Source: Bispira polyomma (Eukaryota). From it: a DNA stretch of 64,000 nucleotides. The stretch is taken from positions 13,082,001-13,146,000 of the forward strand of contig OZ287752.1 in assembly GCA_965649765.1 (NCBI GenBank), read 5' to 3'. The translations under genes were made by a program, and so were the position numbers. This document shows positions 25,654-64,000 of the stretch, piece after piece. The notes under the pieces were generated by a model. It did no database searches. It saw only the letters and a program-made list of their open reading frames with translations, and was not told the origin of the DNA. How positions within the stretch are numbered: the first letter of the stretch is position 1; every line of letters begins with the position of its first letter.

Positions 25654-25724
25654 TCACTTCTTAAAGCAACACCAACAGTGTTAGTAAAAATAATATGGTA
25701 TGACACAGTGAAAATGCATATGAA

Positions 25725-29487: not shown

Positions 29488-29716
29488 TCTGTAATCTCCA
29501 AAATAAAAAAAACTTAAAATTTAAATAGTTATTAAGAATAATACATACCATCGGATCACATTTTCCCGTCAACCCCAAATGTTACACGCTAGTCTGGTGG
29601 AAGTAGCTTGCACATACCCATTGCCTCAGCCATATTGAAGTTTACATGGACTTTGTACTGATTTTACTGGGTGGCCATGGGTAGGCGCCACCCGTGTAAT
29701 GATCAGAAACAAACTT

Positions 29717-29925
29717 CTAATCTAATCTAATCTAATCTAGTCGTACTTTTATAGCGCTTAATCTTTGTACAACAAATTCTAAGGCGCAACAAACCCAGAA
29801 CGTTAATCGCAAATCAAAAATAGTGGGCGGATGGAAGTCGTAACCAGGGAGACTACCGTAAATGGTTGCGACGGCTAAGGTGGAAAAGCCTGTTCAAAAA
29901 GATAGGCCTTCAGCTTACTCCTGAC
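29717..29925 (-). mobile_element. Short 3' end of an L2 LINE with (TTAGA)n tail
   Basis: Nearly identical to 55256-55460. Confidence 0.9.
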
Positions 29926-31614: not shown

Positions 31615-31871
31615 AGGTGGCCGTGGTGGCCTAGTCGTTAGCAAGCATTGCGCTTCACAATCACTGGTTTCTCACCTCTGGGCGGCGTGAATTCGAATCC
31701 CGTTGATGCCTATGTGGGAAAGGTGGTAGTTCCTTACTGTGGGCCGCTGGTTTCTCTGCAGAACCTTGACCGACTGTATGCAGTGTTTCCTCCAGCATTT
31801 CCAACTACCCGTCCCAATATAACCTACTAAAAGGTACTAGAGTGGACGTTAAATATCCAAATTCAAATTCA
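31615..31871 (+). mobile_element. tRNA-derived SINE (family A)
   Basis: GGCCGTGGTGGCCTAGTCG...ATTCGAATCC...(aaattc)n tail; accagtgt at both flanks. Confidence 0.85.
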
Positions 31872-33809: not shown

Positions 33810-34560
33810 TGTTACATATAAAGACATTGTGGTATGTTAAAGCACTCTCCTAGAGTGACCTATTTCTAGATTTGGGGAAACCCCCTAAGCTTCTAGACGC
33901 TGATTCTATTTTGTTTCTGTTGTTTTTGAAGTTGTGTAAATCTGTTTACATCTTATTCTGGAACCTTCTAGCAATTGTTGTTTACATTCTCTAGCTGTAG
34001 TATTTATAAGGGTTGAAAGCCTGGCCACAAACTAGAGTTTATTGAGTTGGTGTGCTGTACGAACTGCTATACTGTGAAACACTTTATTTATTTTCCTGTG
34101 GATATAAGCTGATTATTATATACGTTTTGTGGTGAACTCATTGGAGTGAACTGGATATAAAGTTGGGGATCTACCAGAGATTAAATTTGCTGCATATTGG
34201 ATATTGTTTGCATCCTGGATTGGATAGCTTAGTTGTGCAAACTTTCTGGATTCTGGATATATACATTTTGTGATCGTGGACTCCGAACAGATAACAGGAT
34301 ACAAGCATTGTGTTAGTGGACACTGAGCAGATCTCAAAACAGATTGTTGGATACAGTGGACAAACTTGTTTTTTGTTATTTACGTAGACAGGACTGTGGT
34401 CAGGTCAGATTGGTTTTATAGTTGTATTATTGTATGAACTATTAAGAGTATATCATTTGACTGTAATTGGGTAATTGTTATTTTAATTGTTTTGTCTTTT
34501 CCTGTTACAATTTAAAAGCAACCGGTAATTGCTACCGCGCTTGCTCCCCTGACCGTAACA
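33810..34560. mobile_element. Solo LTR (Gypsy-like) in an intron of gene C
   Basis: TGTTAC...GTAACA termini, 4-bp TSD gcct, and an internal TATA-like tatttataag at ~34001. Confidence 0.7.
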
Positions 34561-36419
34561 GCCTGAAGATGCTTTCTTAAGTCTCCCTACCTTTGTACAA
34601 CCAGTTCACAAGTCAAAAAAACAATTTAACAATAGTTTCTCATGATGCTCTTTAGCTGTAGAATGATCTGCCTCATGATATTTACACTGCCTCTTCACTT
34701 GCCTGTTTGAGGAAAAAGCTCAAAACCTATTTATTTAGCAAGGCCTTTCCATCTTAGCCTCCTTACCTTTATCTGGCGTCTCCATTGTAACGACATCTGT
34801 ACGTCCAATAGTGCATGAGACAGAAAATCATTTTTTACTATTTCATGTAGCCATTGGATATAACAGGGGTCATGACTATAGGCAGTGCAAATATCATATG
34901 AGGAACTATTGTTGAAATGTCCTTTTGACTTATTAACTAATGGTACACAGTTAGCAATACTTGAGAAAAAAGCCTTATTTAGCCTACTACGCTTTTTTTA
35001 TTGATTTGGCAAGTATAAGAACACACACACACACTCGTACTCACAACTTACCTCATGTCCTGCAGACTGGTTGTGGCTCTGCGGCTGGAGGTGAGGTAGG
35101 ACCCACTGGATAAGAAGACCGAACTGAACTGGAGAAAGTTGACTCTCATCTAGGAGAACAAGTATGTCATAGGTTAGCATTTTATAAGAAACCAAAGTCT
35201 TTAATTGGAAAAGTTAGCAGTTGCATTGAGCAGCCATGTTCAAAGCAGATTTCCCTAACAGTCACATCATTAGGGGTTTAATGTTATCCTAAAGGTATAC
35301 TAGCAGTAAGGTTTATACGTCAAAAAAATTATGGGCACCGTACCATGTCCAGTAAATTGTAGGATGGTTCCTAAACATAGGGTCACATTATAACAGCCAT
35401 ATTTTTCGGAGCTGAAGAAGAATAAACCACTGACACTACACATATATTGTTTACAACTTGGTTTATTCATTATTTTTACCAAAACTATTTAATTTTAATT
35501 TTTAAAATTTAAATTTTTTTAATTTTACTTTACTCACCTGTCCAAATGAAATCTGCAGATTCCGTCAATCCACCAGGTTAATTAGAAACTCCCGGATATG
35601 GTTAAAGTTAGCTGGAGTGATGTCATCGCTGCTGTCTATGACCACGGTTAAATCCACGGCCTCCGAACATATCTGCGCATGGTTACCCAATGCCATGAAG
35701 CCCAAAATTACACCGAATATAATCACTGTATTCGTCATGGGTTTAGGCTCCAACTCCATTGTCTTTTTTATTATTCCTTTTCAAGAAACACGTCGACAAT
35801 TTTTACATCACACAAAGTTGTTTAGGACTATATTCACCCGTTGAACTCCAGGTGGTTGTTGACTTAACAGCCGTATAACATTTGTTACTCCCAGAACCTA
35901 TATCTCGGTCGGCAAGCAGTCGACACCGCCCCACAAAAATATTACTTTACTTTGCCTTCAGCTCCTTACAATAGCGATTACAATTTTAGTGTATGTTTGT
36001 AAACCTATTAGCCGCAAAAAAATATATTCCTTCTATTTCCTGGCGATAGTTTTTTTCTCTGGGGTCAAAAATGTTTAAATCCCTCAAAAATATATCAAGA
36101 AGTCGTAAATAGTCCATATATTCATTTTTGACACTGGCAAAGACAAACCATCTGAAAGCTTATACATATATTTGTTTTAGTAAATTGAATTTTTAAAAAA
36201 AAAAGCCAATTGAACTAATCTCCCGTTTCTCCATTTGTTTCACTCCATATTAGTGTCTAAATTTTGTTTGTTTTCTCTCGAAATTTATTTGTGTCTCAAT
36301 AGGAATGTTTACCAAGTAAAAACAATTGAAAAATGACTATTTCATACACTCAGATATTACTATACACAGATTATACACATTTTCAACAGTATATACCTTT
36401 CTGTTTGATAACAACAAAA

Positions 36420-39400
36420 AAATAAATATATCCTATTTTCACCTTTCTTTTATCCAACTATATGTATATATGATCTATTCCAAGCTTAATTTCACTCTAT
36501 TTACACATACAGTACAAACCTTAAAAACACCATACATTCATAAGGAATTAGGGTTTCTCTCTGTTTTTTCTCTTTCTTAACCAGAAAAATGAATTTGACA
36601 TAGTGCCAAACCTTGTGTTATATACCAAGAAACAACATTTAAAGGAGGATATTTCACTTCATGTTTATTTAAGTACAAAATTGTAAATAGGAATATTAAA
36701 GTGTTGTTCGTCCTATTTGGCTTTCAATAAGGGGTGGGGTGGGGGTTGCGGGTTTAGGGTTTGGGGCAAATATTACATATTACAAATCATAAATATATAT
36801 ATATATATTACAGTATAAAAAAAATACCCTCAGACATTTTTAGTAGCATAAAAGGGGAGAATATTTATCAGTTCATAATATTACAACTAGTATGGTATGA
36901 GTTAGGTACACAAATAGTTGTTTGCTGTCTCTATTTCCTCCAATATTATTACATAGTTCTAGCATTCTTATTGTCGTCACCATCACAATTGCCACCAAAA
37001 ACAAAACCCGTTACCTAGCACATACAAACTTGCCCCCCTCAACCAAGTCATCCCAATGTGATAGCAATGGAGGCTCTGTATTTAAGCTTAGGCCATATTT
37101 GGCGATTTTTTCAACTTCAGTAATTTCCGCGTTATCAAATATTTATCGGCTTTTTTGTTCATCTGTGTAGCCGGAGATCAGAGACCATATGAAGAGTCCT
37201 GCCTCCTATACCCTCCCCCGATTTCCAGGGTTGAATAGGAGCTCTGGGAGGCAGGACTATCAAGGTGTTGTGTGTCTCGAGCTCCCACCACGGAGCAACC
37301 CAAACAAAATTTAACCAAAAATATGATATAATTCATATATTAACCAGCAGATAAAACATATTTCAGTGTATATTTATTTGATAAACATGCTTAAATAAAG
37401 TTATAAGCTCCACTAAAGTGAGCAGTATTAATGACACATATTATTGGCATGTTTAGCAGGATTAGAGGAGAGTTTATCTCCTCATATATATTCACAAAAT
37501 GTTGTAAATATTTATACATGTATGATGGAGTATTATTATTGATTATACATTGTTACATGATACTTTATAGTCATAGTGGCAAATTTGATCAAAGTTTAAA
37601 AACATTTTAAAATTCCTGTATAGATGTAAATTAAAAAAACAAAACAATAAAAAACATGTAAATTAATATCCCAAACAGCATCACATCTTTCCATCACAAT
37701 AAAACACATTAAACCATGTATAAACTCCATACAAAGAGGCTATACCAATATGACCCCTATAATAATTACTGTATAACCTCCATATAAAGAGGGGGGCCGC
37801 GGTGGCCTAGTGGTTAGCAAGCATTGCGCTTCACAATCACTGGTCTCTCACCTCTATGCGCCATGAGTTTAAATCCCATCGATGCCTATGTGGGAAAGGT
37901 GGTAGTTCCTTACTGTGGGCCGCTGGTTTCAGTGCAGAACCTTGATCAACAGTATGCAGTGTTTCCTCCAGCGTTTCCAAATATAACAGTCGTCCCAATA
38001 TAACCTAAACAGGTACTAGAGTGGACATTAAATATCCAAATTCAATTCAACTCCATACAAAGAGCCTATGACCTTAAAATTAAAACTAGTCTATGACCTT
38101 GTCATAAAGAGGCCTACCTTTAGGGACTTACAGACATAGGTTCTAGAAGTAAGAAATGGCATGAGCTGCTGGCCTACAGCATAGGGATAGAAAGGGTGTA
38201 AGCATTAAGACATGGGGTGTTTTAAAAGGTGAGGTAAAATTTTACAGGTCAAAAATAAAACTCAGCCTGAAATATATTACATCTTCTTAAAATAATACTG
38301 CCAAAATTTTGATTGTCACAAAAGTGACTTACCTTACCCACAAAATTTGTGGTAACCAATATGACCCTTTGCCAAATAGTTAGTGACAAAAGCACTGGTG
38401 ACAAGATTGACAGTGAGGAACGTAAATACTCTTCAATCCAGACACATAAAATCCTATTGGTAACAATTTTGCGACTGTGAGTAAGTTGATATTCCCTCAT
38501 AGGACAAATAAATGCATTTGACGAAAGCAAGGTAAACAGTTGGCTTGTATTAGATATACTTGTATTATATGTATCGTTTTGTACATTTGTTTTCCGTTTC
38601 CGACTATTTCCGTATATCACTATTGTAAGTTATCCGAGTCAGTCATCGTCAGTTATCAGTGTGTGAAATGTACCTAGATACACGTTTTAACCGGTAGATT
38701 TGTGTGTTAGTAACGAAAAAGTAAATATATCCCATTTTTACCTTTCTGTATATATACATAATATTTTCCATGCTCAATTTCACTCTGTTTACACATACAG
38801 CATCAACCTAAAAAATCACTATATATTTCCTTAATGATTAGGGTTTCTATTTGTTTTCCTCCTTTTTAACCAGCAAATGAACTTGAAATAGTGCAAAACT
38901 TGTTGTTTACCAATTAACAACATTTAAAGAAGAACATTTAATTTCATTTCCTCCATGGTTTAGTTAAGTACAAAATATTACATAATAAGTGTTGTTCACC
39001 CTATTTGGCTTCCTATAGGGGGGCAAATAAGTCATATTTTTCAAAGCACATATATAAATTCCAGTAAGACATGTCCTTAGAGAACTGGTGGTAGCATATA
39101 ATTAAGAAAATTTATCAGAGCACAAGTTTCCACTACTATGGTATGTGTTAAGTACACATATAGTTGTTTGCTGTTTCAATTCCCACAAAAATTATTGATA
39201 ATTCCAGCATTTGTCATTTTTGTGACCGTCAAAATTGTCACCAGAATGTTTTTGTCACTTTCGTCACCAATTTAAGTTTTGTTATATTACTTTGACACAA
39301 GAGGTTGACAGTTTTATTTTTTGACATATGTACCTCGGTATACGGACACGTCATTCCCAAAACAAAGGCCGTCCCCCAGCATATACAAACTTGGCCGCAA

Positions 39401-44206: not shown

Positions 44207-47200
44207 TTAGGACTCTGGGCCGACCCTGCATAGTGAGAGATATACAAATACAGTGTTCAAAAAAAAAAAAAACATATGCATGTGTAGCTGACCGAATGCA
44301 GGCCTGGCCGTTGATATTTATCTTGACCATTTCAAGATAATGGTCTGACTGTTTGTGGACCTACCAAAAATTATTTTTAATAGTTTACTTGTAACATTTA
44401 TTGCTCGGTGAGTGTGTGCAAACTTTTATTACAGTGAATGTACTTATAATTAAATTTTGATATCTCCATAATAAATGAATATTTAATAAATTTAGTACAT
44501 AATACCTTGAATTCAGAATTCTAGATAGCAAATGACAATTACAACCACCTTCCCCTTTTTACTCCTCCATTTCAAAAACTTCATTTCATTGTGGTACGTA
44601 CCTCTTCTTACTTTGTGCCTCTTTCACTATGTGGCTTAAAGTTGATGTTATTAGTTCCACCAATGGGTACCTACTAGGTATGTAGTTACTTTACTTAGTA
44701 TATCACTGTTGTGTCAATTTCTAAACCTAACTGGGCCAGTCCCTTGCCAGTTTTTAATGCCCCAAATTGATGATGCCAGGCATCTTCTAAACGCAACATC
44801 ATTGATAAGTTGTTAAAAATGTAGTCTGTTTCAAATGCATATTCGTGATCGTGAGTTGTATACTTAACTTACTAGTCATATATTTACGTTGTGTTTGGAC
44901 TAGACGGGGCTAGTCCCTTTCTATCGTATTTTTGTTCTTTTTTTAGTTATCACTTCTGTATGCCCGCCTATATGTGGGTTTCGTTACTATCTTTATGTTG
45001 ACTCTGGTGGTTATTTTAAAATTGTACTATCTTTACTATCTTTCAAATTAACCTACTTGGTTCATACAAATTTTGTAAATACTGTACATATATACTAATA
45101 TTGTGTGCAAAAATAAATCTGCCAATTTCTATCTTTTTATTATCTTTAAGGTTTTATTGATAATAATCTATTGATCTGGTTATCTTGTTTTTGAAATCTT
45201 GGTACTAGAAGTTGAAAAATTAATTGAATTCATTAGCAACAAAATAACTACTTTGTAGATGCCTCTATAAAATATGATTGTCATTGTTCTTAACTTGTTT
45301 AAGTGTGAGATCTATACTGTCTTTTTTTTTTACTTGATTCATTTTTTATGTGCAATGTGTTTAATCTCATACATGTGTATTGATGATGATCAATGCTATG
45401 TTTTTAATACTATTTTATCAAGTTATAATAATGCGTGTTTAATATTGATCTGGTCTACAATTTTGTATGTTTTTATGATACACTATATCTATTGTAGAAA
45501 AAGAATACATATACAACTGACCGCTTGATTTGGCAGCAGGTCAGGCAGGCGGCTCCGGGGCCCGTGCAGTAGATCTGCCCCCCACAGCAGCCCGGTGTCG
45601 CCACTGGGTTGGTGCTGTAGTTGCAGCACTTGTCAGCCAGTCTGTGGTGGCAGCAGCAGCAGAGGATCAGAGTCAGGGCAAGAACCAGCAATACTACACT
45701 CTGCAGAAGCGCCACGAGTTCTGGTGGGAAAAACAAGTTAATAGCAGTAAAGATACCGTTACATTTTTAGTAATTTTTAACTCATAAATATATGTTTTAG
45801 AATAGTTATTGCAATAAATCAGTAAACACTTATAACATTTTTTTTTTTTCATTTTTTTATTCTCAATTTTTTTTTCAGGTTTCAATTCATTTAGTCACTC
45901 TTTTTCACAAATATAGTAGGTCTATTTTTGTTACAATTATATGAACCACATTCATGTCTTAGTGTATTGATACAGTTTCACATCATCTGTATGAATGTAT
46001 TGAATAGAAAAATATAAATTGGAATAAAATAAAGTAATGGTTATTTAAAAAAAACTAGGTGTTCAGCTTAAATGAATTGTATGTGAAATACTTGTTGGTT
46101 TATATCTTCTAAAAGACAAGCTTTTTAAAGTCATAGATTATGTTATTTTTTTGGAAAAAAATATTTTATCAACTGCAAAAGAGTAAATAATCAGAATCTC
46201 CTATTTTTTTCAAATTAATTTGCATACTAAAAACAAATAGTAAATATTATTTTAACATATAAAGAGCTACAAAATTGTGTAAGTAAAGACCACCCTGTAC
46301 ACGTCATACTTTAAAAGTGTTTGATCACAAACTAAGACTGAGGTGACGGAAAAAGTTAAATCCATGACTAATTTACATGGTGTTATTGCATCAATATCAA
46401 AATATCAGAAACCACTTCATCCATCTCAGTTTTCTTGCAATAAAAATTCTCTAAATTTGTTTTCGGATCCATCCAAGTGTGTTGTTCGGTCAACATTACC
46501 GCCCAGGATTATGGCACTATTTGCTGACAAAGTGTTGCTTGTGCAAGGACTACACTTTTAAATACAGTGAAACTTGTATATCATGAAGGGAATGCTTGAA
46601 AACGGTCTCATCTAGGTGAGGTCTAGGTGTTTCTATGGAGCTGAATGTCGTGCTATAAACTTGTGATATGAGGCCTGTAATATGTCCAAACCGTCTCTCC
46701 TATAAAGGTCAAGTATTGCTATTTGGAAAAATTTAGGCAGTCTCCTGTCACACAACATAAGAGTGGTATTTCAACACAGACTATTTGTTGTAGGAAAATT
46801 CATGGGATGATTTCAAAAGTGGTCTTTAGGTAGGAATGGTCATTTTCTGAGAGTGGTGGTCACTAGTACAGGTTTGACCGTATCTGAGATAATCCATAGC
46901 GCTTTGGGTCCCTCATTTTGGGAAACCTCTGTGGTGTTGTGAGCACGAATCTTGACCCTGGTGTGTGTGGATGTGGCAAAGTTGACAGTAGACACTTGCT
47001 GAAGGCCAGTAGTTTGCCAAGCAAGAAACAGCTGGACTCCAATTGACTCTGTTCTAATTTCTGGCCAGGGGTGAACTGCGCACCGTGATATATATATATA
47101 TATATGATGCAATACGTGTAGAAAGTGATGTTTTAAGGCTCCAACTTATCTAATCTAATACAGCAACAAATGATAGCAAAGCATAACATATTATTAAACT

Positions 47201-50200
47201 AGCAGTATTATGAACGCCTGTGTGATAACCTTACCCATTGTGACCTAAGGTGGCCCTACTAGTAGTCATTTATAAACACCTGTTTCTCACAATCACTGGT
47301 TTCTTCTACCATTGAATCTAGCTGTCATGATATGACATACGTTGTTAAAGGCAACGTAAAACAACAACTAAAGTAAATTTCTTCTGGGAGGGACCACTAT
47401 GTGACCTAATGGTTAGAAGTGCCTGGTTCACAATCACGAGTCTCTCTAACCAGCATTGGTTCAAATCCCTGTCTTCCCTTCATGTGGAGAAGTTTGCTAG
47501 CTACTTGCCGTAGGGTTCGTGGTTTACAGTGGCGCTTCTTCCACCATTGAATCTGGCTGTCGTGACACACCCTAAGCTACCGAAGGTGGCGTGAAAAACC
47601 CAGCTGGATTGTAAATTACTTGTGTACAACTAACATAGATGTTGAGTTTTGACTTATGTTCATACCTATGAGCAGGGCTCTATTCCATGTCTGTCCTGGA
47701 AAGTAGAATACACATAAAAAAAACACATTTATATAAAATCATAAAAACAGCAATATAACTTCTTTTTTTTTTATTTAGGCAATTTTTACCAAAAATACAA
47801 TACAATACAATACACAAACAAAAAACATTATAGAATTACTCAATAGAAAAACAAACAAAAAAAAAACAATAATACAAACAAACACGCACTTGCCTACATG
47901 ATACAATTATTGTTAAGACACTGTGACGTTAAATATATTTAATACTATTTATATTTCAGAAATAATCTTCTGTTTATTTGGCCATATAACTTTCATCTTT
48001 ACTTTCTTTACTTGATCATTGATATCAGCTAAACCTTACAGAAACATTTTACAGTCCTTCCAATAGGGTTCTTTATTATTTATTTCACAATCATGTATGA
48101 AGTTTTTAAAGTACCTAATAGAACAATTAAATTCGTTTTCATAGCTAATATAATTTTGATTTTTAAGTCCAAAACCTAGAATTATATCCCTTTTATCCTC
48201 TCATATGCTGCACTCAAGTTATGGAATGACCAACCACAATGTATTAGATGCTCACCTTCTAATTAACATTTAAAAGCAAGCTGAAGACCTATCTTTATCA
48301 AAAAACCATATCCCACCTGACATGGTCTTACTATCACCAACTCCCTCTCTGGAAACTCTCTAGGTTGCGAATTTTAGATTTCTTATTATATACTTTATAA
48401 TCATATATACCTGCTGTTTTATACAACCTAATTATGGGGAGTAAAGGGCTTTACAGAAAAATTGGAAATAATATAATAAAAAACAATTACATAGACTACT
48501 GCCGGCCTGCACGACACTACACCACACAGCAATTGGCCTTGGGATACCAAAACCAAATCACAAATACCAAAACATAGCTCTTTGTTGAGTGTTTTGTCCT
48601 GATGAGGGCAAAAAAAGGTATGCTGGACAGAAATTTGAAGTACATCCAGTGTACAATTTCTAGGGCCCCCTTTTCTAAAGGTTACAAAAAAAAAAAAAAA
48701 AAATTGGCCTTCGGAGAAAACTATAAAAAAACTGTTGCATCGTTAGGTTACCCCATGTAGTATTTAGCAAAATCATTAGGATTGTGTAGTGTTATGCCGT
48801 GATTGATGTGAATAGTACTGTGGTGCTGTGACGTGTTGTCCCCTGTACTGTGGTGCAGTGTAGTGTCGTGTAGGCGGGGGTTGTAAAGGCCTTTAGAACT
48901 GTACACCTACCTTCAGTGGTGCCTGTGGTATGCACTGCAGTGACATCACAGTTTGTGGTGGTGGTGACTATGGGACTGGAAGCGGTATCTACTTCAGTGC
49001 TCGTTGAGGGGTCTGTAGGTCCAACCGTTGTAGTCGTCGTAGTCGTAGTCGTCGCACTGTTGCCTGCTTGGTATAGATAAAGTAAAAAAAAGAAGGTTGA
49101 ACTTTGTAACAGTGTGTTATAACTGAGTAAAGGTTAATTAGCTCATTAAACACTCAGGATTCATGTGTTTCCCCTTTAGCTCAACTGTTAGCATACTAGA
49201 ATAATAACATGCCATGACAACCCAGGCGCAAATCCAGGCAGTGGTAAGCCTTTTGAAAAGTTTTTCAGCAGAGCGGAGTCATTTATGTTGTTTACATGGT
49301 GGAGAAAAATTGGAAATAATATAATAAAAAACAATTACATAGACTACTGCCGGCCTGCACGACACTACACCACACAACAATTGGCCTTGGGAGACCAAAA
49401 CCAAATCACAAATACCAAAACATAGCTCTTTGTTGAGTGTTTTGTCATGATGAGGGCAAAAAAAGGTATGCTGGACAGAAATTTGAAGTACATCCAGTGT
49501 ACAATTTCTAGGGCCCCCTTTTCTAAAGGTTACAAAAAAAAAAAAAAAAAAATTGGCCTTCGGAGAAAACTATAAAAAACACTGTTGCATCGTTAGGTTA
49601 CCCCATGTAGTATTTAGCAAAATCATTAGGATTGTGTAGTGTTATGCCGTGATTGATGTGAATAGTACTGCGGTGCTGTGACGTGTTGTCCCCTGTACTG
49701 TGGTGCAGTGTAGTGTCGTGTAGGCGGGGGTTGTAAAGGCCTTTAGAACTGTACACCTACCTTCAGTGGTGCCTGTGGTATGCACTGCAGTGACATCACT
49801 GTTTGTGGTTGTGGTGACTATGGGACTGGAAGCGGTATCTACTTCAGTGCTCGTTGAGGGGTCTGTAGGTCCAACCGTTGTAGTCGTCGTAGTCGTCGCA
49901 CTGTTGCCTGCTTGGTATAGATAAAGTAAAAAAAAGAAGGTTGAACTTTGTAACAGTGTGTTATAACTGAGTAAAGGTTAATTAGCTCATTAAACACTCA
50001 GGATTCATGTGTTTCCCCTTTAGCTCAACTGTTAGCATACTAGAATAATAACATGCCATGACAACCCAGGCGCAAATCCAGGCAGTGGTAAGCCTTTTGA
50101 AAAGTTTTTCAGCAGAGCGGAGTCATTTATGTTGTTTACATGGTGGAGAAAAATTGGAAATAATATAATAAAAAACAATTACATAGACTACTGCTGGCCT

Positions 50201-53200
50201 GCACGACACTACACCACACAACAATTGGCCTTGGGAGACCAAAACCAAATCACAAATACCAAAACATAGCTCTTTGTTGAGTGTTTTGTCATGATGAGGG
50301 CAAAAAAAGGTATGCTGGACAGAAATTTGAAGTACATCCAGTGTACAATTTCTAGGGCCCCCTTTTCTAAAGGTTACAAAAAAAAAAAAAAAAAAATTGG
50401 CCTTCGGAGAAAACTATAAAAAACACTGTTGCATCGTTAGGTTACCCCATGTAGTATTTAGCAAAATCATTAGGATTGTGTAGTGTTATGCCGTGATTGA
50501 TGTGAATAGTACTGCGGTGCTGTGACGTGTTGTCCCCTGTACTGTGGTGCAGTGTAGTGTCGTGTAGGCGGGGGTTGTAAAGGCCTTTAGAACTGTACAC
50601 CTACCTTCAGTGGTGCCTGTGGTATGCACTGCAGTGACATCACTGTTTGTGGTTGTGGTGACTATGGGACTGGAAGCGGTATCTACTTCAGTGCTCGTTG
50701 AGGGGTCTGTAGGTCCAACCGTTGTAGTCGTCGTAGTCGTCGCACTGTTGCCTGCTTGGTATAGATAAAGTAAAAAAAAAGAAGGTTGAACTTTGTAACA
50801 GTGTGTTATAACTGAGTAAAGGTTAATTAGCTCATTAAACACTCAGGATTCATGTGTTTCCCCTTTAGCTCAACTGTTAGCATACTAGAATAATAACATG
50901 CCATGACAACCCAGGCGCAAATCCAGGCAGTGGTAAGCCTTTTGAAAAGTTTTTCAGCAGAGCGGAGTCATTTATGTTGTTTACATGGTGGAGGAAAATT
51001 GGAAATAATATAATAAAAAACAATTACATAGACTACTGCCGGCCTGCATGACACCACACCACACAGCAATTGGCCTTGGGATACCAAAACCAAATCACAA
51101 ATACCAAAACATAGCTCTTTGTTGAGTGTTTTGTCATGATGAGGGCAAAAAAAAGGTATGCTGGACAGAAATTTGAAGTACATCCAGTGTACAATTTCTA
51201 GGGCCCCCTTTTCTAAAGGTTACAAAAAAAATTTAAAAAAAAAATTGGCCTTCGGAGAAAACTAAAAAAAACTGTTGCATCGTTAGGTTACCCCATGAAG
51301 TATTTAGCAAAATCATTAGGATTGTGTAGTGTTATGCCGTGATTGATGTGAATAGTACTGCGGTGCTGTGACGTGTTGTCCCCTGTACTGTGGTGCAGTG
51401 TAGTGTCGTGTAGGCGGGGGTTGTAAAGGCCTTTAGAACTGTACACCTACCTTCAGTGGTGCCTGTGGTGTGCACTGTGGTGACATCACTGTTTGTGGTT
51501 GTGGTGACTATGGGAGTGGAAGCGGTATCTACTTCAGTGCTCGTTGAGGGGTCTGTAGGTCCAACCGTTGTAGTCGTCGTAGTCGTCGCACTGTTGCCTG
51601 CTTGGTATAGATAAAGTAAAAAAAAAGAAGGTTGAACTTTGTAACAGTGTGTTATAACTGAGTAAAGGTTAATTAGCTCATTAAACACTCAGGATTCATG
51701 TGTTTCCCCTTTAGCTCAACTGTTAGCATACTAGAATAATAACATGCCATGACAACCCAGGCGCAAATCCAGGCAGTGGTAAGCCTTTTGAAAAGTTTTT
51801 CAGCAGAGCGGAGTCATTTATGTTGTTTACATGGTGGAGAAAAATTGGAAATAATATAATAAAAAACAATTACATAGACTACTGCCGGCCTGCACGACAC
51901 TACACCACACAACAATTGGCCTTGGGATACCAAAACTAAATCACAAATACCAAAACATAGCTCTTTGTTGAGTGTTTTGTCATGATGAGGGCAAAAAAAA
52001 GGTATGCTGGACAGAAATTTGAAGTACATCCAGTGTACAATTTCTAGGGCCCCCTTTTCTAAAGGTTACAAAAAAAAAAAAAAAAAAATTGGCCTTCGGA
52101 GAAAACTATAAAAAAAACTGTTGCATCGTTAGGTTACCCCATGTAGTATTTAGCAAAATCATTAGGATTGTGTAGTGTTATGCCGTGATTGATGTGAATA
52201 GTACTGCGGTGCTGTGACGTGTTGTCTCCTGTACTGTGGTGCAGTGTAGTGTCGTGTAGGCGGGGGTTGTAAAGGCCTTTAGAACTGTACACCTACCTTC
52301 AGTGGTGCCTGTGGTGTGCACTGTGGTGACATCACTGTTTGTGGTTGTGGTGACTATGGGAGTGGAAGCGGTATCTACTTCACTGCTCGTTGAGGGGTCT
52401 GTAGGTCCAACCGTTGTAGTCGTCGTAGTCGTAGCACTGTTGCCTGCTTGGTATAGATAAAGTAAAAAAAAAGAAGGTTGAACTTTGTAACAGTGTGTTA
52501 TAACTGAGTAAAGGTTAATTAGCTCATTAAACACTCAGGATTCATGTGTTTCCCCTTTAGCTCAACTGTTAGCATACTAGAATAATAACATGCCATGACA
52601 ACCCAGGCGCAAATCCAGGCAGTGGTAAGCCTTTTGAAAAGTTTTTCAGCAGAGCGGAGTCATTTATGTTGTTTACATGGTGGAGAAAAATTGGAAATAA
52701 TATAATAAAAAACAATTACATAGACTACTGCCGGCCTGCACGACACTACACCACACAACAATTGGCCTTGGGATACCAAAACCAAATCACAAATACCAAA
52801 ACATAGCTCTTTGTTGAGTGTTTTGTCATGATGAGGGCAAAAAAAGGTATGCTGGACAGAAATTTGAAGTACATCCAGTGTACAATTTCTAGGGCCCCCT
52901 TTTCTAAAGGTTACAAAAAAAAAAAAAAAAAAATTGGCCTTCGGAGAAAACTATAAAAAAAACTGTTGCATCGTTAGGTTACCCCATGAAGTATTTAGCA
53001 AAATCATTAGGATTGTGTAGTGTTATGCCGTGATTGATGTGAATAGTACTGCGGTGCTGTGACGTGTTGTCCCCTGTACTGTGGTGCAGTGTAGTGTCGT
53101 GTAGGCGGGGGTTGTAAAGGCCTTTAGAACTGTACACCTACCTTCAGTGGTGCCTGTGGTGTGCACTGTGGTGACATCACTGTTTGTGGTTGTGGTGACT

Positions 53201-56200
53201 ATGGGACTGGAAGCGGTATCTACTTCAGTGCTCGTTGAGGGGTCTGTAGGTCCAACCGTTGTAGTCGTCGTAGTCGTAGTCGTCGCACTGTTGCCTGCTT
53301 GGTATAGATAAAGCAAAAAAAAATAAGGTTGAACTTTGTAACAGTGTGTTATAACTGAGTAAAGGTTAATTAGCTCATTAAACACTCAGTATTCATGTGT
53401 TTCCCCTTTAGCTCAACTGTTAGCATACTAGAATAATAACATGCCATGACAACCCAGGCGCAAATCCAGGCAGTGGTAAGCCTTTTGAAAAGTTTTTCAG
53501 CAGAGCGGAGTCATTTATGTTGTTTACATGGTGGAGAAAAATTGGAAATAATATAATAAAAAACAATTACATAGACTACTGCCGGCCTGCACGACACTAC
53601 ACCACACAGCAATTGGCCTTGAGATACCAAAACCAAATCACAAATACCAAAACATAGCTCTTTGTTGAGTGTTTTGTCATGATGAGGGCAAAAAAAGGTA
53701 TGCTGGACAGAAATTTGAAGTACATCCAGTGTACAATTTCTAGGGCCCCCTTTTCTAAAGGTTACAAAAAAAAAAAAAAAAAAAAATTGGCCTTCGGAGA
53801 AAACTATAAAAAAAACTGTTGCATCGTTAGGTTACCCCATGTAGTATTTAGCAAAATCATTAGGATTGTGTAGTGTTATGCCGTGATTGATGTGAATAGT
53901 ACTGCGGTGCTGTGACGTGTTGTCCCCTGTACTGTGGTGCAGTGTAGTGTCGTGTAGGCGGGGGTGGTAAAGGCCTTTAGAACTGTACACCTACCTTCAG
54001 TGGTGCCTGTGGTGTGCACTGTGGTGACATCACTGTTTGTGGTTGTGGTGACTATGGGAGTGGAAGCGGTATCTACTTCAGTGCTCGTTGAGGGGTCTGT
54101 AGGTCCAACCGTTGTAGTCGTCGTAGTCGTAGTCGTCGCACTGTTGCCTGCTTGGTATAGATAAAGTAAAAAAAAAGAAGGTTGAACTTTGTAACAGTGT
54201 GTTATAACTGAGTAAAGGTTAATTAGCTCATTAAACACTCAGTATTCATGTGTTTCCCCTTTAGCTCAACTGTTAGCATACTAGAATAATAACATGCCAT
54301 GACAACCCAGGCGCAAATCCAGGCAGTGGTAAGCCTTTTGAAAAGTTTTTCAGCAGAGCGGAGTCATTTATGTTGTTTACATGGTGGAGATCAGCAGAAA
54401 AATCCCCCCTCTCATAAGCCAAGCAAGTTAGTAGAGTTAACGTGGTAGTAGTATAAAACCTGAGGACAGGTCTTTGCAAGGGAGTGGCATCGAATATCCG
54501 TGTATATCAGCGCATTAAACACTCAGGCTTCTGGGTTTCCCCTTTAGCACAACTGTTAGTCAACAAGACTATTAATCTCAAGATCCATGACAACCCAGGA
54601 TCAAATCCCAGCAGTAACAAGTCTCTTTATATGTTTACAGCAGAGCCAAGTTATTTCTGTTGTTTATAATTGTACCAAAAAGCATCACACTTTTGGAAAT
54701 CGATTGAGATCGCTGAATCAAGACAAATTCAAATACAGCGCATATTAGATTTACAGTTCATATAATTTTGTTTGGAATAGCCTGTCAGAGTGATGATATA
54801 AGTTTTGATAATAATTATAACTACTTAACTATTCTGTTAAAGGGTGAATGGTGTTTTAAAACAATAGAAAAAGTAAAAAACAAAACAAATATTTTTCTTT
54901 GAAATAAAAACATGAATTAAAACAATATGTGTAACCTCTAACAAAAATGTGACTCTACAAAACACACAAAACATTTTGGATGGGGATCGAATTCTACAAA
55001 GTCCTTCATGTGAGAAAGTTCTTCATGTGCTTGCCGTCGGTTGGTGGTTTACAGTGCTCAAGCACTGGTTTCCCCCACCACTGATCCCAAATAAATTGGA
55101 AATTTGAAAGTATATATCGATTTCTTAATTTGGTATTTAGAGCAGCTAATTAACCCTTTCGTGACTGTTAATGTTAATGTTAATATTTTTACTTCTATAA
55201 CGCCACAATCGATGACCAAGCATCCTCTGTGGCGCATATCCTATTAAGTATGCAATCTAATCTAATCTAATCTAGTCGTACTTTTATAGCGCTTAATCTT
55301 TGTACAACAAATTCTAAGGCGCAACAAACCCAAAACGTTAATCGAAAATCAAAAATAGTGGGCGGATGGAAGTCGTAACCAGGGAGACTACCGTAAATGG
55401 TTGCGACAGCTAAGGTGGAAAAGCCTATTCAAAAAGATAGGCCTTCAGCTTACTCCTGAAAGAGGAGAAAGTTTGAGCCAGGTGAACATGATCAGGTAGG
55501 TTGTTCCAAATGAGGGGGCCATCATGAGCTAGGCAGTGATTGAACTGAACTTTGGATTTGTGGATGCGAGGGTCAAAAGTGGGAATGTTAAGGTATAATT
55601 TATCAGGGTTACTGCGCCTTGTCCTGACTGAGCATGTATATTTGGATAGATGGGGGCTAAAATAAGTGGGTAATCCAGAATTTAGAAATTTATATATTAT
55701 TGTTGCTGTTTTGAAAGCAACACGATATGTTATTGGGAGCCAGTGCAGTGACTTGAGTACAGGAGTAATGTGGGAAAATTTAGAAGTTTTGGTCACAATA
55801 CGTGCCAATGAGTGTTGGATATTCTGAAGGCGTCTGAGATCACTACGAGATAAGGAACGGAACAGAGAGTTGCAGTAATCAAGCCTGCTGCTGACCAAAG
55901 CATTGGCAACAGTGATTGCAGTGGATTTGGAAAGATAGCGTCGAATCCGCCTGAAATCACGGAGGCCAACAAAACATGATCTACACACCAATGCGACATG
56001 GTTAGAAAAGGAGAATTCAGAGTCGAACACCACACCCAGGTTTCGTACTTTGTCAGCTGGAAAAAACCTGCTGCCAAGAATGTCAAGTGGAAAACAGCTG
56101 GACAATTTTTCCCGTTGCGACTTGGAGCCAAACAAAATAAACTCAGTCTTCTCAGGGTTCAGCTTGAGTTTATTTGCTGCCATCCAGTGTTGTACATCAA

Positions 56201-59200
56201 CAAGGCAGTTCTGTAAGGAAGTGAAAGCTGCCTGGGCAGAGGCAGGTGTAAGGTGGATGTACAGTTGGGTATCATCAGCATAGAAGTGAAAGTTTATGTT
56301 TTTGTATACAGCAATAATCTTGCTGAGTGAAGTGGTGTACATGGAAAACAAAATGGGACCCAGGACGGAACCTTGGGGAACACCAAATTTTAACCATGTT
56401 GGGTCGGATAAGATATTGCCAATTTTGACTGATTGGAATCTATCAGACAAATATGCCGTGAACCACTTAAGCGCCATACCGCTGATACCGAACCAAGACG
56501 ATAGGCACCCAAGAAGAACTTTGTGATCAATAGTATCAAAGCCTGCTGACAGATCCAGCAGTACTAAGGCAGTAGGCATACCTTTGGATAAAGATGTATG
56601 AACATCATTTTTGATGCAGAGAAGTGCAGTCTCAGTAGAATGGCCACTTTTATACGCTGACTGATACTTATTGGACAGATTGCTGACGTCAACATGTTGT
56701 TTGATCTGTAAGGCAACCGCGCGTTCTACCAACTTAGAGATATAGCAAAGGCCTGAGACAGGACGGTAATTTTTCAAGTCAGCCTTTGGAAGAGAAGGTT
56801 TTTTTATTAAAGAAGTGACAATGGCCTTTTTAAAATCATCTGGAAAGACCCCATTTATCAACGAGAGGTTGATAAGTTTTGTGATTGAGGGCAATAAAAT
56901 GTCAATACATTCTTTGACAAGGAATGTGGGCCACGGATCTAGCAAGCAAGATTTTACGGGTGATGCTAGTATAATTTTTCTGACTTCATCAACAGTTACT
57001 GTGGAGAAACAGTTGAAGACGGTTGGTGGGGCTGTTGGTAAAGGGGCATTTGGGGCAGCTAATGTAAAACCGTCACGGATTCTGGTAATTTTATCAGTGA
57101 AAAAAGTACTAAAAATGTTTGCCAGTGATTTGCTATTGGAATTTTCGGGTAGTATAGTCTGTTTTTTACGGTGGAGGGTGCTATTTAGTTTTTGCCAAAG
57201 TTTCTTCGGGTCACCCTCGCTTTGTGATATCATGTTGGCATAGTAGGCACGTTTTGAGTCATTTATAGTGTTGTTGCACCGGGTGATCCATTGGCGTAGT
57301 CTAGATCTATTTGTAGTAGTATGCAAGAGCATAGTGCAGTAGACGGAAAAAGATGAAAAAAGGTCGTGATCAGAGAATCAGTCGTGACCATCGTGACCAT
57401 CAGACGCAAGCTAGGGTAGAAAAGTGAGCTGATACAGATGTGTTTTAAGCCTTTTTGTGAAACCCATGATGCTCGTCTCAGTCCGAAGACTGGTAGGGAG
57501 GCTATTCCACTTAGCAGGTGCTGCAACTAAGAATGATTTTGAACCAGCTTGTTTTTTTTGGCAGGAAACCATAGGTAGAGAGACAATTGCCTTTGATGAG
57601 ATTGCTGAGAGACAGCATAGACTGTGACAGTTTTTGTTGTGACCTTGCCAGGGCGGGAGGAGTCTGGTGGGGCTCAGGTTGCTGTCAGGTCCAAAACAGA
57701 TTAGAAGAGAAAGTATTATAGTTACCATAAATATGAGCTTTATTCGCACGTAAGAAATACACACACAAAATGTTGTAATTTCCCGCCCGAGCTTCTGGCA
57801 TAGGCAGAACTTGCTTTATCTAATGAGGGAGGATAGCTGCTGAGTAAGATCTATATTTAGAGATGATAAATGTCTCACTGATGATTCTAGGAGAAAGGTA
57901 ATTAATGTTGTCCCTATGTTTGGGGGGTTGTTGACCAGTGCAATACCTGACAACACAGTCAACTGCATCAGTTACTGTCCTTTATCCCTAACTGAAGAAG
58001 AGAGAGGCTTGAGAAAGTCACCATTTACCAACGTCTCGCAAGGACCTATAGCCTGCTGCCACTGGGGAATAGGGACCGTGCGTGAAAGAGGACTTCCCCC
58101 ATTTTATGTGGTGTCATCCAAGCGACTAGGCACATGGGCATGTATACACATCTTGCCCCAAGGATGTTATACCAAAGAATAAGGTACAATAAAGAAATGT
58201 AAACTACAATACAATGTATGTGTGAAAAAAAGGTTCTCTGGCAAATATAAGTTTACAAGAAAACTGGATCGAACAAGCATAGTAAAAGCAGAATTACCCA
58301 TTAGAGATTCTTCTTATGAATGCAAAATTGATGAAAAGCTGGGCCAAAATTTTGGCAAAAGTTGTATGAAAATGTTTAAATGAAAACAAAATACGTCTCC
58401 ATACTATATATGTATATAGTTCAATTTGTTTGCTTTTTGTCAAAGCAAATATAATATAAATAATATAATGCATATGTTAGAATTGCTGTGTCATAGAGCC
58501 AGTAATGACTTAATATTTTATGTATTGTGTAGTCTAATTTTGTATTGTCTTTTGTCTCAAACAAAATAATGAATAAAAAAAAAGTTTATCTTCTCATATA
58601 TTTTTTGGCAATCTGCTCTATTTTAAGCTGTTACCTATAGAGAATTAGCTTCGAAACCATGTTTAGAAATGTATAACAAAATTGGGTTTTATGTACCAGA
58701 ATATTGTGTTTACGATTGATATGTTATATTAGCCACACGTTTCTGTGTGGAATTATTATGTAAAACCTGACACTAAAAGCTTGCAAATTCCTGGTAACTA
58801 CTACAGTTTTCATACGCATTTTTACAGGCGCCAGAACCACAAAAACACATAATTATTACGTCACAGTGGATAATACAAAGTTTTGATGGTCAGATCAAGT
58901 CATAAATATTACATGTGGTTTAGAGAATAACCCATGATAAGCCAAGGACATATTGTGCTCCAAACCATTGGCAGTAATGTTGTTTACAATTAATTGTTTG
59001 GCAGAATGGAAACAGCCAACTTTGATCTTGGACTTTTAAGTCTAATTGTCAGTGTGTGTTATGGTTGAATAAAACTTTCTCATTAAATGAGTATCTTCAT
59101 TAAAAATTGGGAAAATGCCGTCAGGCCCGAAAGTCATACTCAGCTGACCAAGGGTTCATATATCCCAGCATGACCCTCACAAACAGCTTATATTATGTTT

Positions 59201-62200
59201 ATTATACCAAAGCATTTTTTAGGATTTTTAATAAAGATACTCTACGTAAGTGAAATGGCCTGCTGCAGTGATATGGGGCCCCCCTATATCACATTTCATG
59301 TTATGTCACGTGATTGCACTTTAACCAGTAGGATTACTGGATTCGCCGCAAAGGTATAATTATTTAAATTATATTGCTATACTGTGTGGGGAACAACTTA
59401 ACTCTTTGTGCTGTTCCGACGCTGTAGTATCAACCACCAGATCGCTGTCTTTTACGGCCAAGTGGATTATAAAATACACTATATGTGTGTTAAAAAAGAT
59501 ACTCTGTAGTAGAAACAAGCCTACTTGGCGCGGGAGTGTCCCTGTTGCAAAGTCCGGCCGCAACCGTGGCCTCGGTGCTGTGTAGGTTGGCATAGTCATT
59601 GTACAGGAAGTAGTTCTGGCCCAGCACCCGGGGGTCAGAGGTCAGCTGCTGTATCTCATCCACGTCAACCGCCGAGGTCACTCCTATCACCAGCATGTCG
59701 ATGCCGGCGTTGTGTATGTCCTCGGCCTTTTGGATGGCGCTAGAAAAAGGTAGAAATACCATGAATGGATTTGTCAAGGCAAAAGCAAGACGTATTCATG
59801 CTCAAATCATGGTGAGAATGGTAATGCTTCTAATCACAAGGCAGTGCGTCTAACCACTAGCCAACTACATCTTTTTGTTACTTTTTTATACAAACAAACC
59901 ATTGCTAATACAGTACAGTAAACTCCCTTTTAAGTTGAACGAGAAGTCAAATTCCATTTGATGTAAAGAAATATCTGTATTCCGTCCAACAAAATCTACC
60001 CTTTGTTAAGGGAAAACCCTGCTTAAGTAGAGGTATTTATCCTGGTCCTTTGAGGATCAACTTGAAAGGGTTCAACTGAAATTAGGGGGGTGGGGGGGGT
60101 CTCTGTGCTGAAAAGGTAAGACTCTGGCTTCTCACCTCTGCAGGCGTGGGTTCCAACTGCTTGCCAACACAGACACAGGTTCTAGGAGTAACAAATACCC
60201 TCGGCTGAGACAGATATAACTAGACCTAGCGCATTGGAGAATCCTAGGTAGGAAGCACCCAAGCTGTGGCTACCCTCGTCTGACCTTAAAGGAGGGGTCC
60301 AAGGTCAAATCTGAACACAGCAGAAGATTCTCAGCCCATGATTACCTATAAGTTGGTTTCACATTGAAAACCTATAGGACCAATAATAAGCGAGTTATAA
60401 GCTCATTAAGTTTGGCTATTGTCATTTGACCTCGAAGAAGGGGCACAAGGTCAAACTTCACTACATCAGAAGACTCCCAGCCTACAAATTCATATAGGTT
60501 GCTTTTACATCTCAAAACTGTAGGACCAATAATAAGCGAGTTTTAAGCACTTTTAGGTTTAACTACCCTCGTCTGACCTTGACAGAGGGGCCCAAGGTCA
60601 AATCTGACGACATCAGACGAGTCCTAGCCCATGATTACCTATAAGTTGGTTTTACATTGAAAACCTCTAGGACCAATAATTAGCGAGTTATAAACACTTT
60701 TAAGTTTGGTTATCCTCGAAATGACCTTGAAGGAGGGGACCAAGGTCAAACTTGACCTCATCAGAAGATTCATAGCCCATGATTTCATATAGGTTGGCTT
60801 CACATACCAAACTTTTAGGACCAATAATAAGGGAGATATAGGCACTTTTAAAGTCAGCTATGTGGGGTACTTTAGCACTCTGTGGATGACGTTGAATGAA
60901 GAGCTTTAAGGTCAAATGTCTGCATGGTTGTAGAGGACATATATATGTGTTATACATATCACCTATGAAGATTTTCAACCTTCTAGTTACGAGAACCAGC
61001 CAGTAGAAAAAGATAGATTGTTTTCAAAGAAATGCCTATGGCGGCCATCTTGTTTTTCAGAATGAGGCTAATTTCAGTGGTAGAGATGCTTACCTCCAAA
61101 TGAAGATATCCTGCAAATTTGGCTAAGCTAGATGGTCTAGTTTTTCGCTGAGAGTGTTAACGGTAAAAATCTCTCTACGGCCGCAACGACGGTGGCAGCG
61201 GCAGCGTAGCGAATGCTAAACCAAAGTATCCATCTCGGTGGATACAATAAACTACTGTGAACGGCTGTATATACCTTGTTTTATCCGCAGATGGCCCCGC
61301 CATAAGAAGTATGATGACATTGGGATTGGTACTCTTGTCATTGGAGCGGGGACTTTTGAGGTAGTAATCCAGGACCAGGGCTGTGTCCCTCCCGACCACA
61401 CCTAGGTAACTATAAAATAATATGATAAAATAGATTTTTAAACGTGGTTCATTGATGCCAGGCATGTTCTAAAGCACAACATCATCAACAAGGTTGCCAA
61501 AATCCTAGTTTGGGATGGGGGGGGGGGGGGGGGGGGTGATGTAAAGGAGAAAGATGTCTATGGATGGTAAGTGAGGGTGGGTCTTAAGGTTGCTTCTGAA
61601 ACATTTGGGGGTTTCCTGGTATCTTATATTGGCCCAATACATTGTTCTGTTATTGGCTTCATGTCAGTTTAGTTGCAACATTGAAACTGTGTGGACAGAG
61701 GCACATCTGTCGGATACAGACAAATAAACATACTTTATTAGAAGTATACTGCTGTGTATATAGACATTCAACCAACAGACCTGAGTAGTGTACAGCTACC
61801 ATGTTAGTTTACATGACAATACTTTACTGTGTCAGTTTGTGGCCGGTTGATCAAAAATGCCAACATTTTTGAGAGCTCCCGACACCTCATTGATGCATGT
61901 ATGTAAGACCTGAGAGCCCGGAAAAGTCGAACAAGGACCTCATTTGGAGTCACGCACCTGAGCTAACCCATAGTTTACATGAGTTGTGCCACACTCTCAG
62001 GAATTAGACAGAGATAAGTGCAACCAACACAGAGGGGATTTATCGAGAGCTGTGCAATTTACCTTCGCTTTGCATAATGTGGGTGTTTAATATTTTCAAG
62101 TATATCTTATTTAGTGTAAAACAATATAATACATTATTCTTTGCAATTTGCATTGTACGATGCTATGTATTTCTGCTCCCCATAGGTATCACAATCGCAA

Positions 62201-62508
62201 ATAGTGCAGCGCCTTCGTGTGTATAGAGACTTTTTTATATTATAATTTAATTATAAGAGGGACCTAATTACAATAACAACTCACACATGTTATTAAAATT
62301 TAAAAAAAAATCATATTTGTGGAGACATGGACATGACATTGCATAAACTCGGCTTAATGTGTGTGAGGGTAATTTAATTGGACAATGTTGGCTACAGAAC
62401 CCCAATTTACCGCATGTCGTCTAGTGCAGTCTGGCATCTTCTACTTGACGTTAGGTAATTGCCACTTGGGAGGAAGCTCGAGTGATACTGGATGAAGTTG
62501 ACCCTGGT
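44207..62508 (-). CDS. vWA - mucin-like stalk - TM - Cys-rich tail membrane protein, gene B (5' end outside the window)
   Basis: In-phase exons: 62411-62508, 61275-61409 and 59525-59739 (vWA); seven Thr-rich exons 53995-54147, 53142-53294, 52297-52443, 51451-51597, 50605-50751, 49761-49907 and 48911-49063; micro-exon 47666-47695 (GQTWNRALLI); TM/Cys exon 45522-45720; last exon 44207-44225 (RVGPES*). No stops or frameshifts were seen. Confidence 0.8.
48456..54389. repeat. Tandem array of seven ~847-bp exon+intron units
   Basis: Units start at ~48456, 49304, 50148, 50993, 51839, 52685 and 53536. They differ by scattered SNPs and by poly-A and Thr-codon length changes. Confidence 0.97.
55256..57325 (-). 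mobile_element. 5'-truncated L2/CR1-group LINE with an open RT ORF (55425-57332) and (TTAGA)n tail, intronic in gene B
   Basis: NYRPVSGL, LLDLSAGFDTIDH, GVPQGSVLGP, FYADDTQ; tctaatctaatctaatcta at 55256. Confidence 0.95.
57330..57560 (-). mobile_element. 3' fragment of a different L2-like LINE
   Basis: SFLVAAPAKWNSLPTSLR...FTKRLKTHLY...P*. Confidence 0.7.
60190..61250 (+). mobile_element. Non-autonomous modular element (HINE/pearl-like) with four ~147-bp internal tandem repeats and a 3' hairpin
   Basis: tgacct..aaggtcaaa units at 60281, 60427, 60574 and 60722; a GC-rich microsatellite-like tract at ~61176-61210; hairpin gtatcca-tctcgg-tggatac at 61226-61245. The family assignment is inferred. 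Confidence 0.65.
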
Positions 62509-63835: not shown

Positions 63836-64000
63836 TTGTTAGGATTACCACAACAGGCATTGACTTGCTGAGAGTCAGGGGTACTCACAAACAAACACTC
63901 ACTAAACAACACTGCTACTCACTGTTGAAAAGCTAATCTGCAAGTTTGGCACAAGCACGAGATTGTAGAAGAACTGCTTTACCAGAGTGTCATTTGGTTG

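Follow-up and report, generated by a model that had tools for sequence, protein, structure and literature searches.

A predicted stalked vWA membrane protein of Bispira polyomma, its paralog family and the circularly permuted insert that carries its gene

What kind of protein is encoded by a gene whose exons join a von Willebrand factor A (vWA) domain, a threonine-rich stalk, a transmembrane (TM) segment and a cysteine-rich tail, and to which family does it belong? The question is raised by gene D, located on the minus strand of a 64,000-nucleotide stretch of the Bispira polyomma assembly GCA_965649765.1 (contig OZ287752.1, positions 13,082,001 to 13,146,000, forward strand; hereafter the window). 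A preliminary description of the window had read the gene as a surface adhesion or recognition receptor of a family that it could not name. Judged from its sequence and its relatives, gene D is a real and intact vWA-stalk-TM-Cys-tail gene in a lineage-restricted family without a name, and our preferred reading of its product is a receptor whose head binds without metal.

The 13 exons running from 62508 to 44207 on the minus strand join to 1743 nt, equal to 580 residues and a stop codon without an internal stop, and with canonical splice sites, just as the preliminary description had assembled them. That description had placed exon 1 beyond the window. The exon was located (L001:1138-923, window-equivalent 64138-63923), and its last 78 nt turned out to be the last 78 bases of the window itself (64000-63923). 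The full model thus comprises 14 coding exons and 652 amino acids of a predicted type I membrane protein, and all 13 introns are of the GT..AG type. Its layout is a signal peptide, one vWA domain, the Thr-rich stalk, one TM segment and the Cys-rich tail. Counted from where the vWA domain ends up to the motif WNRALL, the stalk spans 357 residues, of which 154 are Thr and 40 are Ser (54%), and its seven repeat exons sum to 349 codons, the very length reported before. The TM segment and tail seen earlier also hold: hydropathy has a single peak of 2.85 at residue 582, and the cytoplasmic tail of 52 residues contains 12 Cys. The model predicts that all exons belong to a single transcript; the contigs X1-X3 (two samples of one study, kind of contig unclear) contained no splice joints and are no evidence either way. 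Over the stalk array, the X1 contig reached a depth of 119, compared with 16-23 in single-copy contigs, which fits several copies, depth not being equal to copy number. The parts of the gene are as follows, where the C13 copy is the copy of gene D on contig C13 and MIDAS denotes the metal-ion-dependent adhesion site of vWA domains.

63923-64000 (exon start at window-equivalent 64138), minus strand: 3' part of coding exon 1 of gene D; signal peptide, vWA strand A with D-S-S-S-D, helix 1; Pfam VWA positions 1-28, E=0.13
62411-62508, minus strand: exon 2 (98 nt); vWA strands B and C and the next helix; 11/98 nt unlike the C13 copy
61275-61409, minus strand: exon 3 (135 nt); Arg at the MIDAS Thr position, Ala at the MIDAS Asp position
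59525-59739, minus strand: exon 4 (215 nt); C-terminal half of the vWA domain; differs from the C13 copy at 4 silent sites and at 0 replacement sites
48911-54147, minus strand: seven tandem exon-plus-intron units of 844-853 bp each, 98.1-99.9% alike
54147-53995, 53294-53142, 52443-52297, 51597-51451, 50751-50605, 49907-49761 and 49063-48911, minus strand: stalk exons (147/153 nt, phase 1-1, Thr-rich), one per unit
47666-47695, minus strand: 30-nt exon ahead of the TM segment, same protein sequence in the C13 copy
45522-45720, minus strand: exon of the TM segment and the cysteine-rich cytoplasmic tail
44207-44225, minus strand: last coding exon with the stop codon

A degenerate 147-bp tandem repeat in four copies (window 60267-60851) lies in intron 3 and is, by contig depth, a very high-copy repeat of the genome.

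Gene D does not stand alone. Genome searches over the 1.035-Gb assembly (75 contigs, counts being lower bounds), complemented by profile scans of the retrieved stretches, revealed at least 13 family genes: a tandem row of nine at C13:3.04-3.38 Mb (g1-g9), single genes on C12 and at C5:12.2 Mb, and genes D and C in the window. Exons 2 and 3 measure 98 and 135 nt with the same intron phases in 11/11 modelled copies (g1 and g2 are outside this set), which is more than chance would give, and the vWA domains of the copies share 46-97% identity. The TM and Cys-tail exon was present in 10 of the 13 paralogs, with the order vWA-stalk-TM-Cys preserved; the profile scans of the retrieved stretches did not find it for g7, g8 or C. 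The genes g7 and g8 (G000:C13:3326402-3347300) have mucin exons, and are possibly secreted members. While the stalk is a Thr-rich mucin in most paralogs, reaching approximately 600 residues in g9, it is built of epidermal growth factor (EGF) domains in g3 (17 exons, 16 by pattern and one read directly) and g4 (46 exons). These EGF arrays (C13:3154588-3161530 and C13:3193948-3213800) consist of near-identical exons in exon-plus-intron units of approximately 420 bp. That stalks of unrelated chemistry occupy the same place fits a spacer role. With about 0.25 nm per glycosylated residue and 2.5-3 nm per EGF domain, the head would be held at a height of approximately 90 nm in D and more than 110 nm in g4. 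The TM and tail exons of g2 and g3 differ at 5/301 bases (C13:3089526-3089826 vs C13:3163502-3163802) and the heads of these genes are distant, suggesting exon exchange or conversion between the two TM exons. The gene g1 (G000:C13:3037918-3064559) has the intron positions and tail type common to the family, with 23 Cys in its tail exon, and is a candidate ancestral member.

With regards to the head, profile and structure comparisons place it in the vWA superfamily. As single exons, exon 4 (E=0.0035) and exon 1 (E=0.13) both fall below the curated Pfam VWA cut-off. The family profile matches Pfam-positive full VWA domains at an E of approximately 1e-22, and the first match of exon 4 in the ESM Atlas was a VWA cluster (score 0.92). 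The Rossmann-like alpha/beta fold with strands A-F was found on the database relative P0120 only, whose model (pLDDT 94) reached a TM-score of approximately 0.8 to the integrin alpha-1 I domain and 0.86 to the mussel protein PTMP1, and also matched collagen VI. Named vWA relatives come from annelids, an orthonectid, Hydra and abalone, for example as 'cartilage matrix protein-like'. At the five MIDAS columns, D-S-S-T-D is present in 15 of the 16 database relatives and all five residues are kept in g1, whereas the 10/10 aligned derived family domains read D-S/T-D/E-R-A/V/T. Gene D itself reads D-S-D-R-A and lacks the DxSxS...T...D metal site. The pattern suggests that a salt bridge between the invariant Arg and the new acidic residue takes the place of the metal. 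With the MIDAS lost, an integrin-type mode of ligand binding is excluded. The A domains of von Willebrand factor bind collagen through their edge-strand face. These domains are described as collagen binders that lack a MIDAS (PMC7893114).

The comparison of gene D with its C13 copy, using Fisher tests, revealed a sharp contrast between the two halves of the head. Across the introns, 143/5448 bases differ (2.6%). In mature exon 1 and exon 2, however, 20/177 replacement sites differ (11.3%, p=1e-7 vs introns), and the 100-bp bins of these two exons are the two highest in the whole comparison. Exon 3 has 5/99 replacement and 0/36 silent differences. Exon 4 has none at 160 replacement sites and 4/53 at silent sites; the chance of zero at the intron rate is 0.015, and the contrast between exons 1-2 and exon 4 is significant (p=2e-6). 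Independent multi-base codon changes are present in each of the two copies, and no other paralog has them. CpG decay accounts for 4 of the 25 differences in exons 1-2. That gene conversion by a known paralog caused this divergence was unsupported, since the changed codons match none of the seven other paralogs shown. Mapped on the P0120 model, the changed residues lie in helix 1, its loop, the strand-C hairpin and the next helix. By these site counts, purifying selection acts on exon 4, whereas the N-terminal half of the vWA domain is at least unconstrained and probably driven.

From the architecture and the substitution pattern, we predict that gene D encodes a metal-independent adhesion or recognition receptor with a stalked vWA head, a fast-changing partner and a palmitoylated Cys tail, a reading to which we assign a probability of roughly 55%. 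In this mechanism, the O-glycosylated Thr-rich stalk would hold the head above the cell surface. The head would bind its fast-changing partner without metal, via the side on which the edge strand of the domain lies, with the salt bridge between the Arg and the added acidic residue standing in for the metal. The partner may be a microbial, parasite or cell-surface ligand engaged in an arms race. Palmitoylation of the cysteine-rich tail would anchor and cluster the protein, and the family could vary its reach, by number and type of stalk exons, separately from its specificity, by the surface of the head. We infer stalk glycosylation, tail palmitoylation, the position of the binding face and the type of partner. 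Precedents for two of these elements are described in the literature: cysteines beside the TM segment are palmitoylated in CD4, TLR2 and Fas (PMC7655920), and parasite resistance in snails is controlled by clusters of divergent single-pass genes (PMC7494358, PMC13712769). The preliminary description's surface receptor is still the best reading, given that the architecture recurs in 10/13 paralogs and that Pfam, the protein searches and the papers searched yielded no named family for it; the paralog family, the EGF stalks of two members, the lost MIDAS and the circle-type origin discussed below had escaped it.

Several observations weigh against this receptor. Silent sites in mature exon 1 and exon 2 are also elevated over introns (5/54, 9.3%, p=0.014), which brings pN/pS, the ratio of replacement to silent divergence, to only about 1.2, and a test of the replacement sites against pooled synonymous sites (20/177 vs 9/143) is not significant (p=0.17). 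In the other paralog pairs tested (n=7), pN is lower than pS wherever they differ. The mapping of the changed face was made on the relative P0120 and general vWA topology, and the database relative P0148 also has an Arg at the MIDAS Thr position. Moreover, gene D has a short tail in which no signalling motif is recognised.

The same architecture was also sought in other organisms. The exon-4 profile yielded 609 protein matches at E up to 0.001. Among the best 150 of these, none has a TM segment followed by a Cys-rich tail, and those that come closest, with approximately 50-72% identity, are fragments of unspliced exons in ENA. For P0004, P0008 and P0013 the longest contig is the same (377,693 bp), and a second one (108,116 bp) is common to P0154 and P0162, which suggests that a cluster of the family is present in another animal. 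In a tree of exon 4 (71 columns, 5/22 branches well supported), P0049 and P0162 group with g2 (95/92), and P0004 and P0008 group with g8, g9 and g12 (85/89). From these groupings, the subfamilies are likely older than the split from that other animal; the tree is too weak to show the family as one clade. Further searches added little: a word search with exon 4 gave one match in 33 candidates, again an unspliced fragment; the tail profile matched 0/7997 scored candidates, which is weak evidence; a search of the ESM Atlas with the tail returned no usable match; a scan of JGI metagenomes gave three weak loci, none of them with other family exons; and the exon-4 profile found only two chance matches in the PDB. 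For CYSTM or any other named Cys-rich membrane module, no Pfam family reached the cut-off with 7/7 tails, the best value (E=0.013) being to a TM family. The protein searches made returned no full-length database protein with the vWA-stalk-TM-Cys-tail architecture, and listings and abstract openings of the open-access literature held no description of it, although subscription papers or supplements could hold one. The family that the preliminary description could not name remained without a name in Pfam and in the protein and literature searches.

How did gene D reach a place so far from the C13 cluster? It lies in an insert that matches C13 in two pieces. On the minus strand, window-equivalent 71534 down to 30595 corresponds to C13:3282592-3331103, followed by a filler of approximately 53 nt resembling a short interspersed element (SINE), after which 30541 down to 25413 corresponds to C13:3277672-3282591. 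The two ends of the insert fall on adjoining donor bases (C13:3282592 and C13:3282591), so that it represents a 53,432-bp donor segment in circularly permuted order, and both marks of a circular intermediate, permuted blocks and adjoining donor bases at the insert ends, are base-exact. The circle would have opened inside a transposon with DDE_Tnp_4 and YqaJ frames. The acceptor is a multicopy retroelement, and in 5/5 other copies of it examined the two flanks are 14 nt apart. The joint at 25412/25413 is crossed by the X1 and X3 contigs, from both samples, with 233 and 30 letters, the short side being one below the 31-letter bridging rule. It is therefore likely that gene D reached its chromosome via a DNA circle. 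Haplotype mis-assembly was considered as a source of this C5 copy; the permutation and the interrupted acceptor element make it unlikely. For the copies on C12 and at C5:12.2 Mb, no flank similarity is left at either that could point to a circle-type origin. The features of the insert and its acceptor are listed here.

25413-64000, on to window-equivalent 71534 (46,122 bp), no strand: insert copied from C13, carrying genes D and C
30542-30594, minus strand: joint of the two donor-segment ends (C13:3331103 to C13:3277672), approximately 53 nt of SINE-like filler
25413-30541, minus strand: permuted insert piece (C13:3277672-3282591) with a DDE_Tnp_4 transposase frame; continues at window-equivalent 71534 (C13:3282592)
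25031-25412, plus strand: acceptor, tyrosine-recombinase frame of the multicopy retroelement, broken off at 25412 and continued from window-equivalent 71535, 14 nt lost
55256-57313, minus strand: insertion in intron 4 of D resembling a long interspersed element (LINE); near-intact frame of 650 residues with the look of a reverse transcriptase, short target-site duplication; not in the C13 copy
31341-35759, minus strand: gene C, a broken paralog, with exons at 35759-35538, 35149-35052, 33451-33317, 32450-about 32231 and 31502-31341

The copies have diverged in structure as well. The C13 copy has one stalk unit, whereas gene D has seven, and the start of the TM segment in D gained a Glu and a Gln. 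The start codons also differ by an indel of approximately 30 nt before the signal peptide, both being in frame (L001:1138-1180 vs G000:C13:3301315-3301333). The LINE-like insertion lies on the same strand as gene D and could cut transcripts short. Gene C, behind whose stalk exon the copied segment ends, has a TGA in exon 1 and a frameshift in exon 4, neither of which is found in its C13 copy. Its region (window 30595-38300) is approximately 85-92% like C13, and gene C itself approximately 90-92% like its C13 copy, compared with mostly 95-97% elsewhere in the insert. A different allele may have served as donor, or a later replacement may have occurred; the lower similarity counts against the preferred reading of gene D. 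Comparable duplications through circular intermediates are described for yeast, tilapia vasa, cattle KIT and 16 human cases (PMC7450558). As in the cases presented there, the block order differs between donor and copy by a reversal, the joints carry short indels and there is no long homology; unlike them, the present case concerns an invertebrate, opened within a DNA transposon and landed within a retroelement.

The surroundings of the insert are of a different kind. A tandem array of genes with Ig (V, C2, I-set), FN3 and TM parts, several of them broken, extends through window 334-23622, L009-L012 and L002-L003 (window-equivalent -32400 to 90961). One broken Ig/FN3 copy on the same strand has the insert lying between its C2 exons and its I-set exons, and the array is possibly a second cluster of recognition genes. 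Further on, exons of L004 (window-equivalent 96543-100810) resemble an Ets pointed domain and the tail of a CLC/CBS channel; a protein search with the first returned nothing.

Three other explanations need to be weighed against the receptor. The one that comes closest, though rather unlikely in our estimate, is a structural membrane-tethered mucin or matrix anchor, whose head self-associates or binds collagen or cuticle unspecifically, whose stalk builds glycocalyx and whose variable half is weakly constrained. The nearest full-length relatives are indeed matrix-type vWA proteins (collagen VI, mussel PTMP1, integrin I domains), the possibly secreted g7 and g8 would suit such a role, and pN/pS in exons 1-2 is near 1. 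Relaxed constraint, however, predicts divergence at about the intron rate of 2.6%, not the 11% seen, and it does not sit well with independent multi-base codon changes on both copies that match no other paralog, nor with the EGF stalks of g3 and g4, which are not mucus-forming.

An improbable alternative is that gene D is a duplicate in decay or without expression, or that the LINE on its strand truncates it in intron 4; in either case no full protein would arise from the locus. The broken state of the co-copied gene C, the insertion in intron 4 of D only and the Glu and Gln gained at the TM start would agree with this. On the other hand, 14/14 exons are open with all splice sites canonical, and exon 4 has kept its protein sequence through four silent changes, the absence of replacements having the probability of 0.015 given above. 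We regard it as very improbable that gene D is a diverged member of a named family, be it anthrax-toxin-receptor-like, TRAP/MIC2-like, integrin alpha, collagen VI or matrilin. The vWA fold is held in common, and the TM segment with juxtamembrane Cys recalls the anthrax toxin receptors, but the 652-aa model is without a MIDAS, Ig-like, TSR (thrombospondin repeat), propeller or collagen part, and neither the best 150 of the 609 profile matches nor, as weak evidence, the tail-profile candidates include the TM and Cys-rich tail.

Returning to the recognition receptor, the single parts of gene D are all of known kind; what is new is their combination, the swapping of stalks, the conversion of the MIDAS and the circle-borne copy. 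A wider proposal, which we put forward tentatively and hold to be possible rather than probable, is that of an undescribed spiralian recognition system, in which a MIDAS head became a metal-free Arg-plugged module under diversifying selection, stalk exons were swapped or multiplied (1 to 7 for mucin, 17 to 46 for EGF), and DNA circles seeded members on other chromosomes. The genome offers a natural series, with the putatively ancestral metal-binding g1 beside twelve derived copies and heads at very different heights. With this series it can be tested how a vWA domain comes to bind without metal, and whether the height of the stalk evolves independently of the specificity of the head. A vWA-headed family would furthermore join the few known spiralian recognition clusters, and the insert is a base-exact invertebrate example of gene duplication via a DNA circle; the background section of PMC7450558 lists only yeast, tilapia and cattle ahead of its human cases.

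For better comparison, gene D is finally set beside known systems. Collagen VI, matrilin-like proteins, mussel PTMP1 and integrin alpha I domains resemble it in head fold and sequence. In contrast to these, gene D has a single head on a stalk, a TM segment and a Cys tail, and no collagen, coiled-coil or propeller part; collagen VI and matrilins are secreted proteins with several vWA domains and a collagen helix or coiled coil, and gene D has one vWA domain and one TM segment. The anthrax toxin receptors ANTXR1/2 have a signal peptide, one vWA domain with an intact MIDAS, an Ig-like spacer, a single TM segment, juxtamembrane cysteines and a long tail. Gene D shares the signal peptide, the one vWA domain, the single TM segment and the juxtamembrane Cys, but instead of the Ig-like domain it has a spacer of 357 residues with 54% Thr and Ser, a mucin stalk (EGF in g3 and g4), its MIDAS is lost, and its 52-aa tail contains 12 Cys. 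Apicomplexan TRAP/MIC2 proteins carry a vWA head, an extended repeat stalk, a TSR domain, a single TM segment and an acidic tail with a subterminal Trp, and MIC2 was among the PDB structure matches. The vWA head on an extended repeat stalk with a single TM segment is common to both, whereas gene D belongs to an animal gene cluster, has lost the MIDAS, and has neither a TSR nor an acidic Trp tail in the 652-aa model.

Closer in plan are GPIb-alpha, TIM-1 and PSGL-1, which hold a ligand-binding head on an O-glycosylated stalk of variable repeat number, with palmitoylatable Cys beside the TM segment. By sequence, gene D is of the membrane-tethered mucin type, with a tandem-repeat ectodomain rich in Thr, Ser and Pro and a TM segment, and it shares with these proteins the head-on-mucin-stalk plan and the Cys beside the membrane. 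However, its head is another one, and its stalk varies by duplication of whole exon-plus-intron units and is swappable for EGF repeats. The last comparison is with the Biomphalaria clusters GRC, PTC2 and LG5R. The main texts of PMC7494358 and PMC13712769 mention 'von Willebrand' 0 times, which sets these clusters apart from the present family. Yet they likewise are clusters of single-pass genes that have diverged, in a spiralian genome, and have gained and lost members (PMC7494358, PMC13712769), and by analogy these resistance clusters would be the nearest functional counterpart of gene D and its paralogs.

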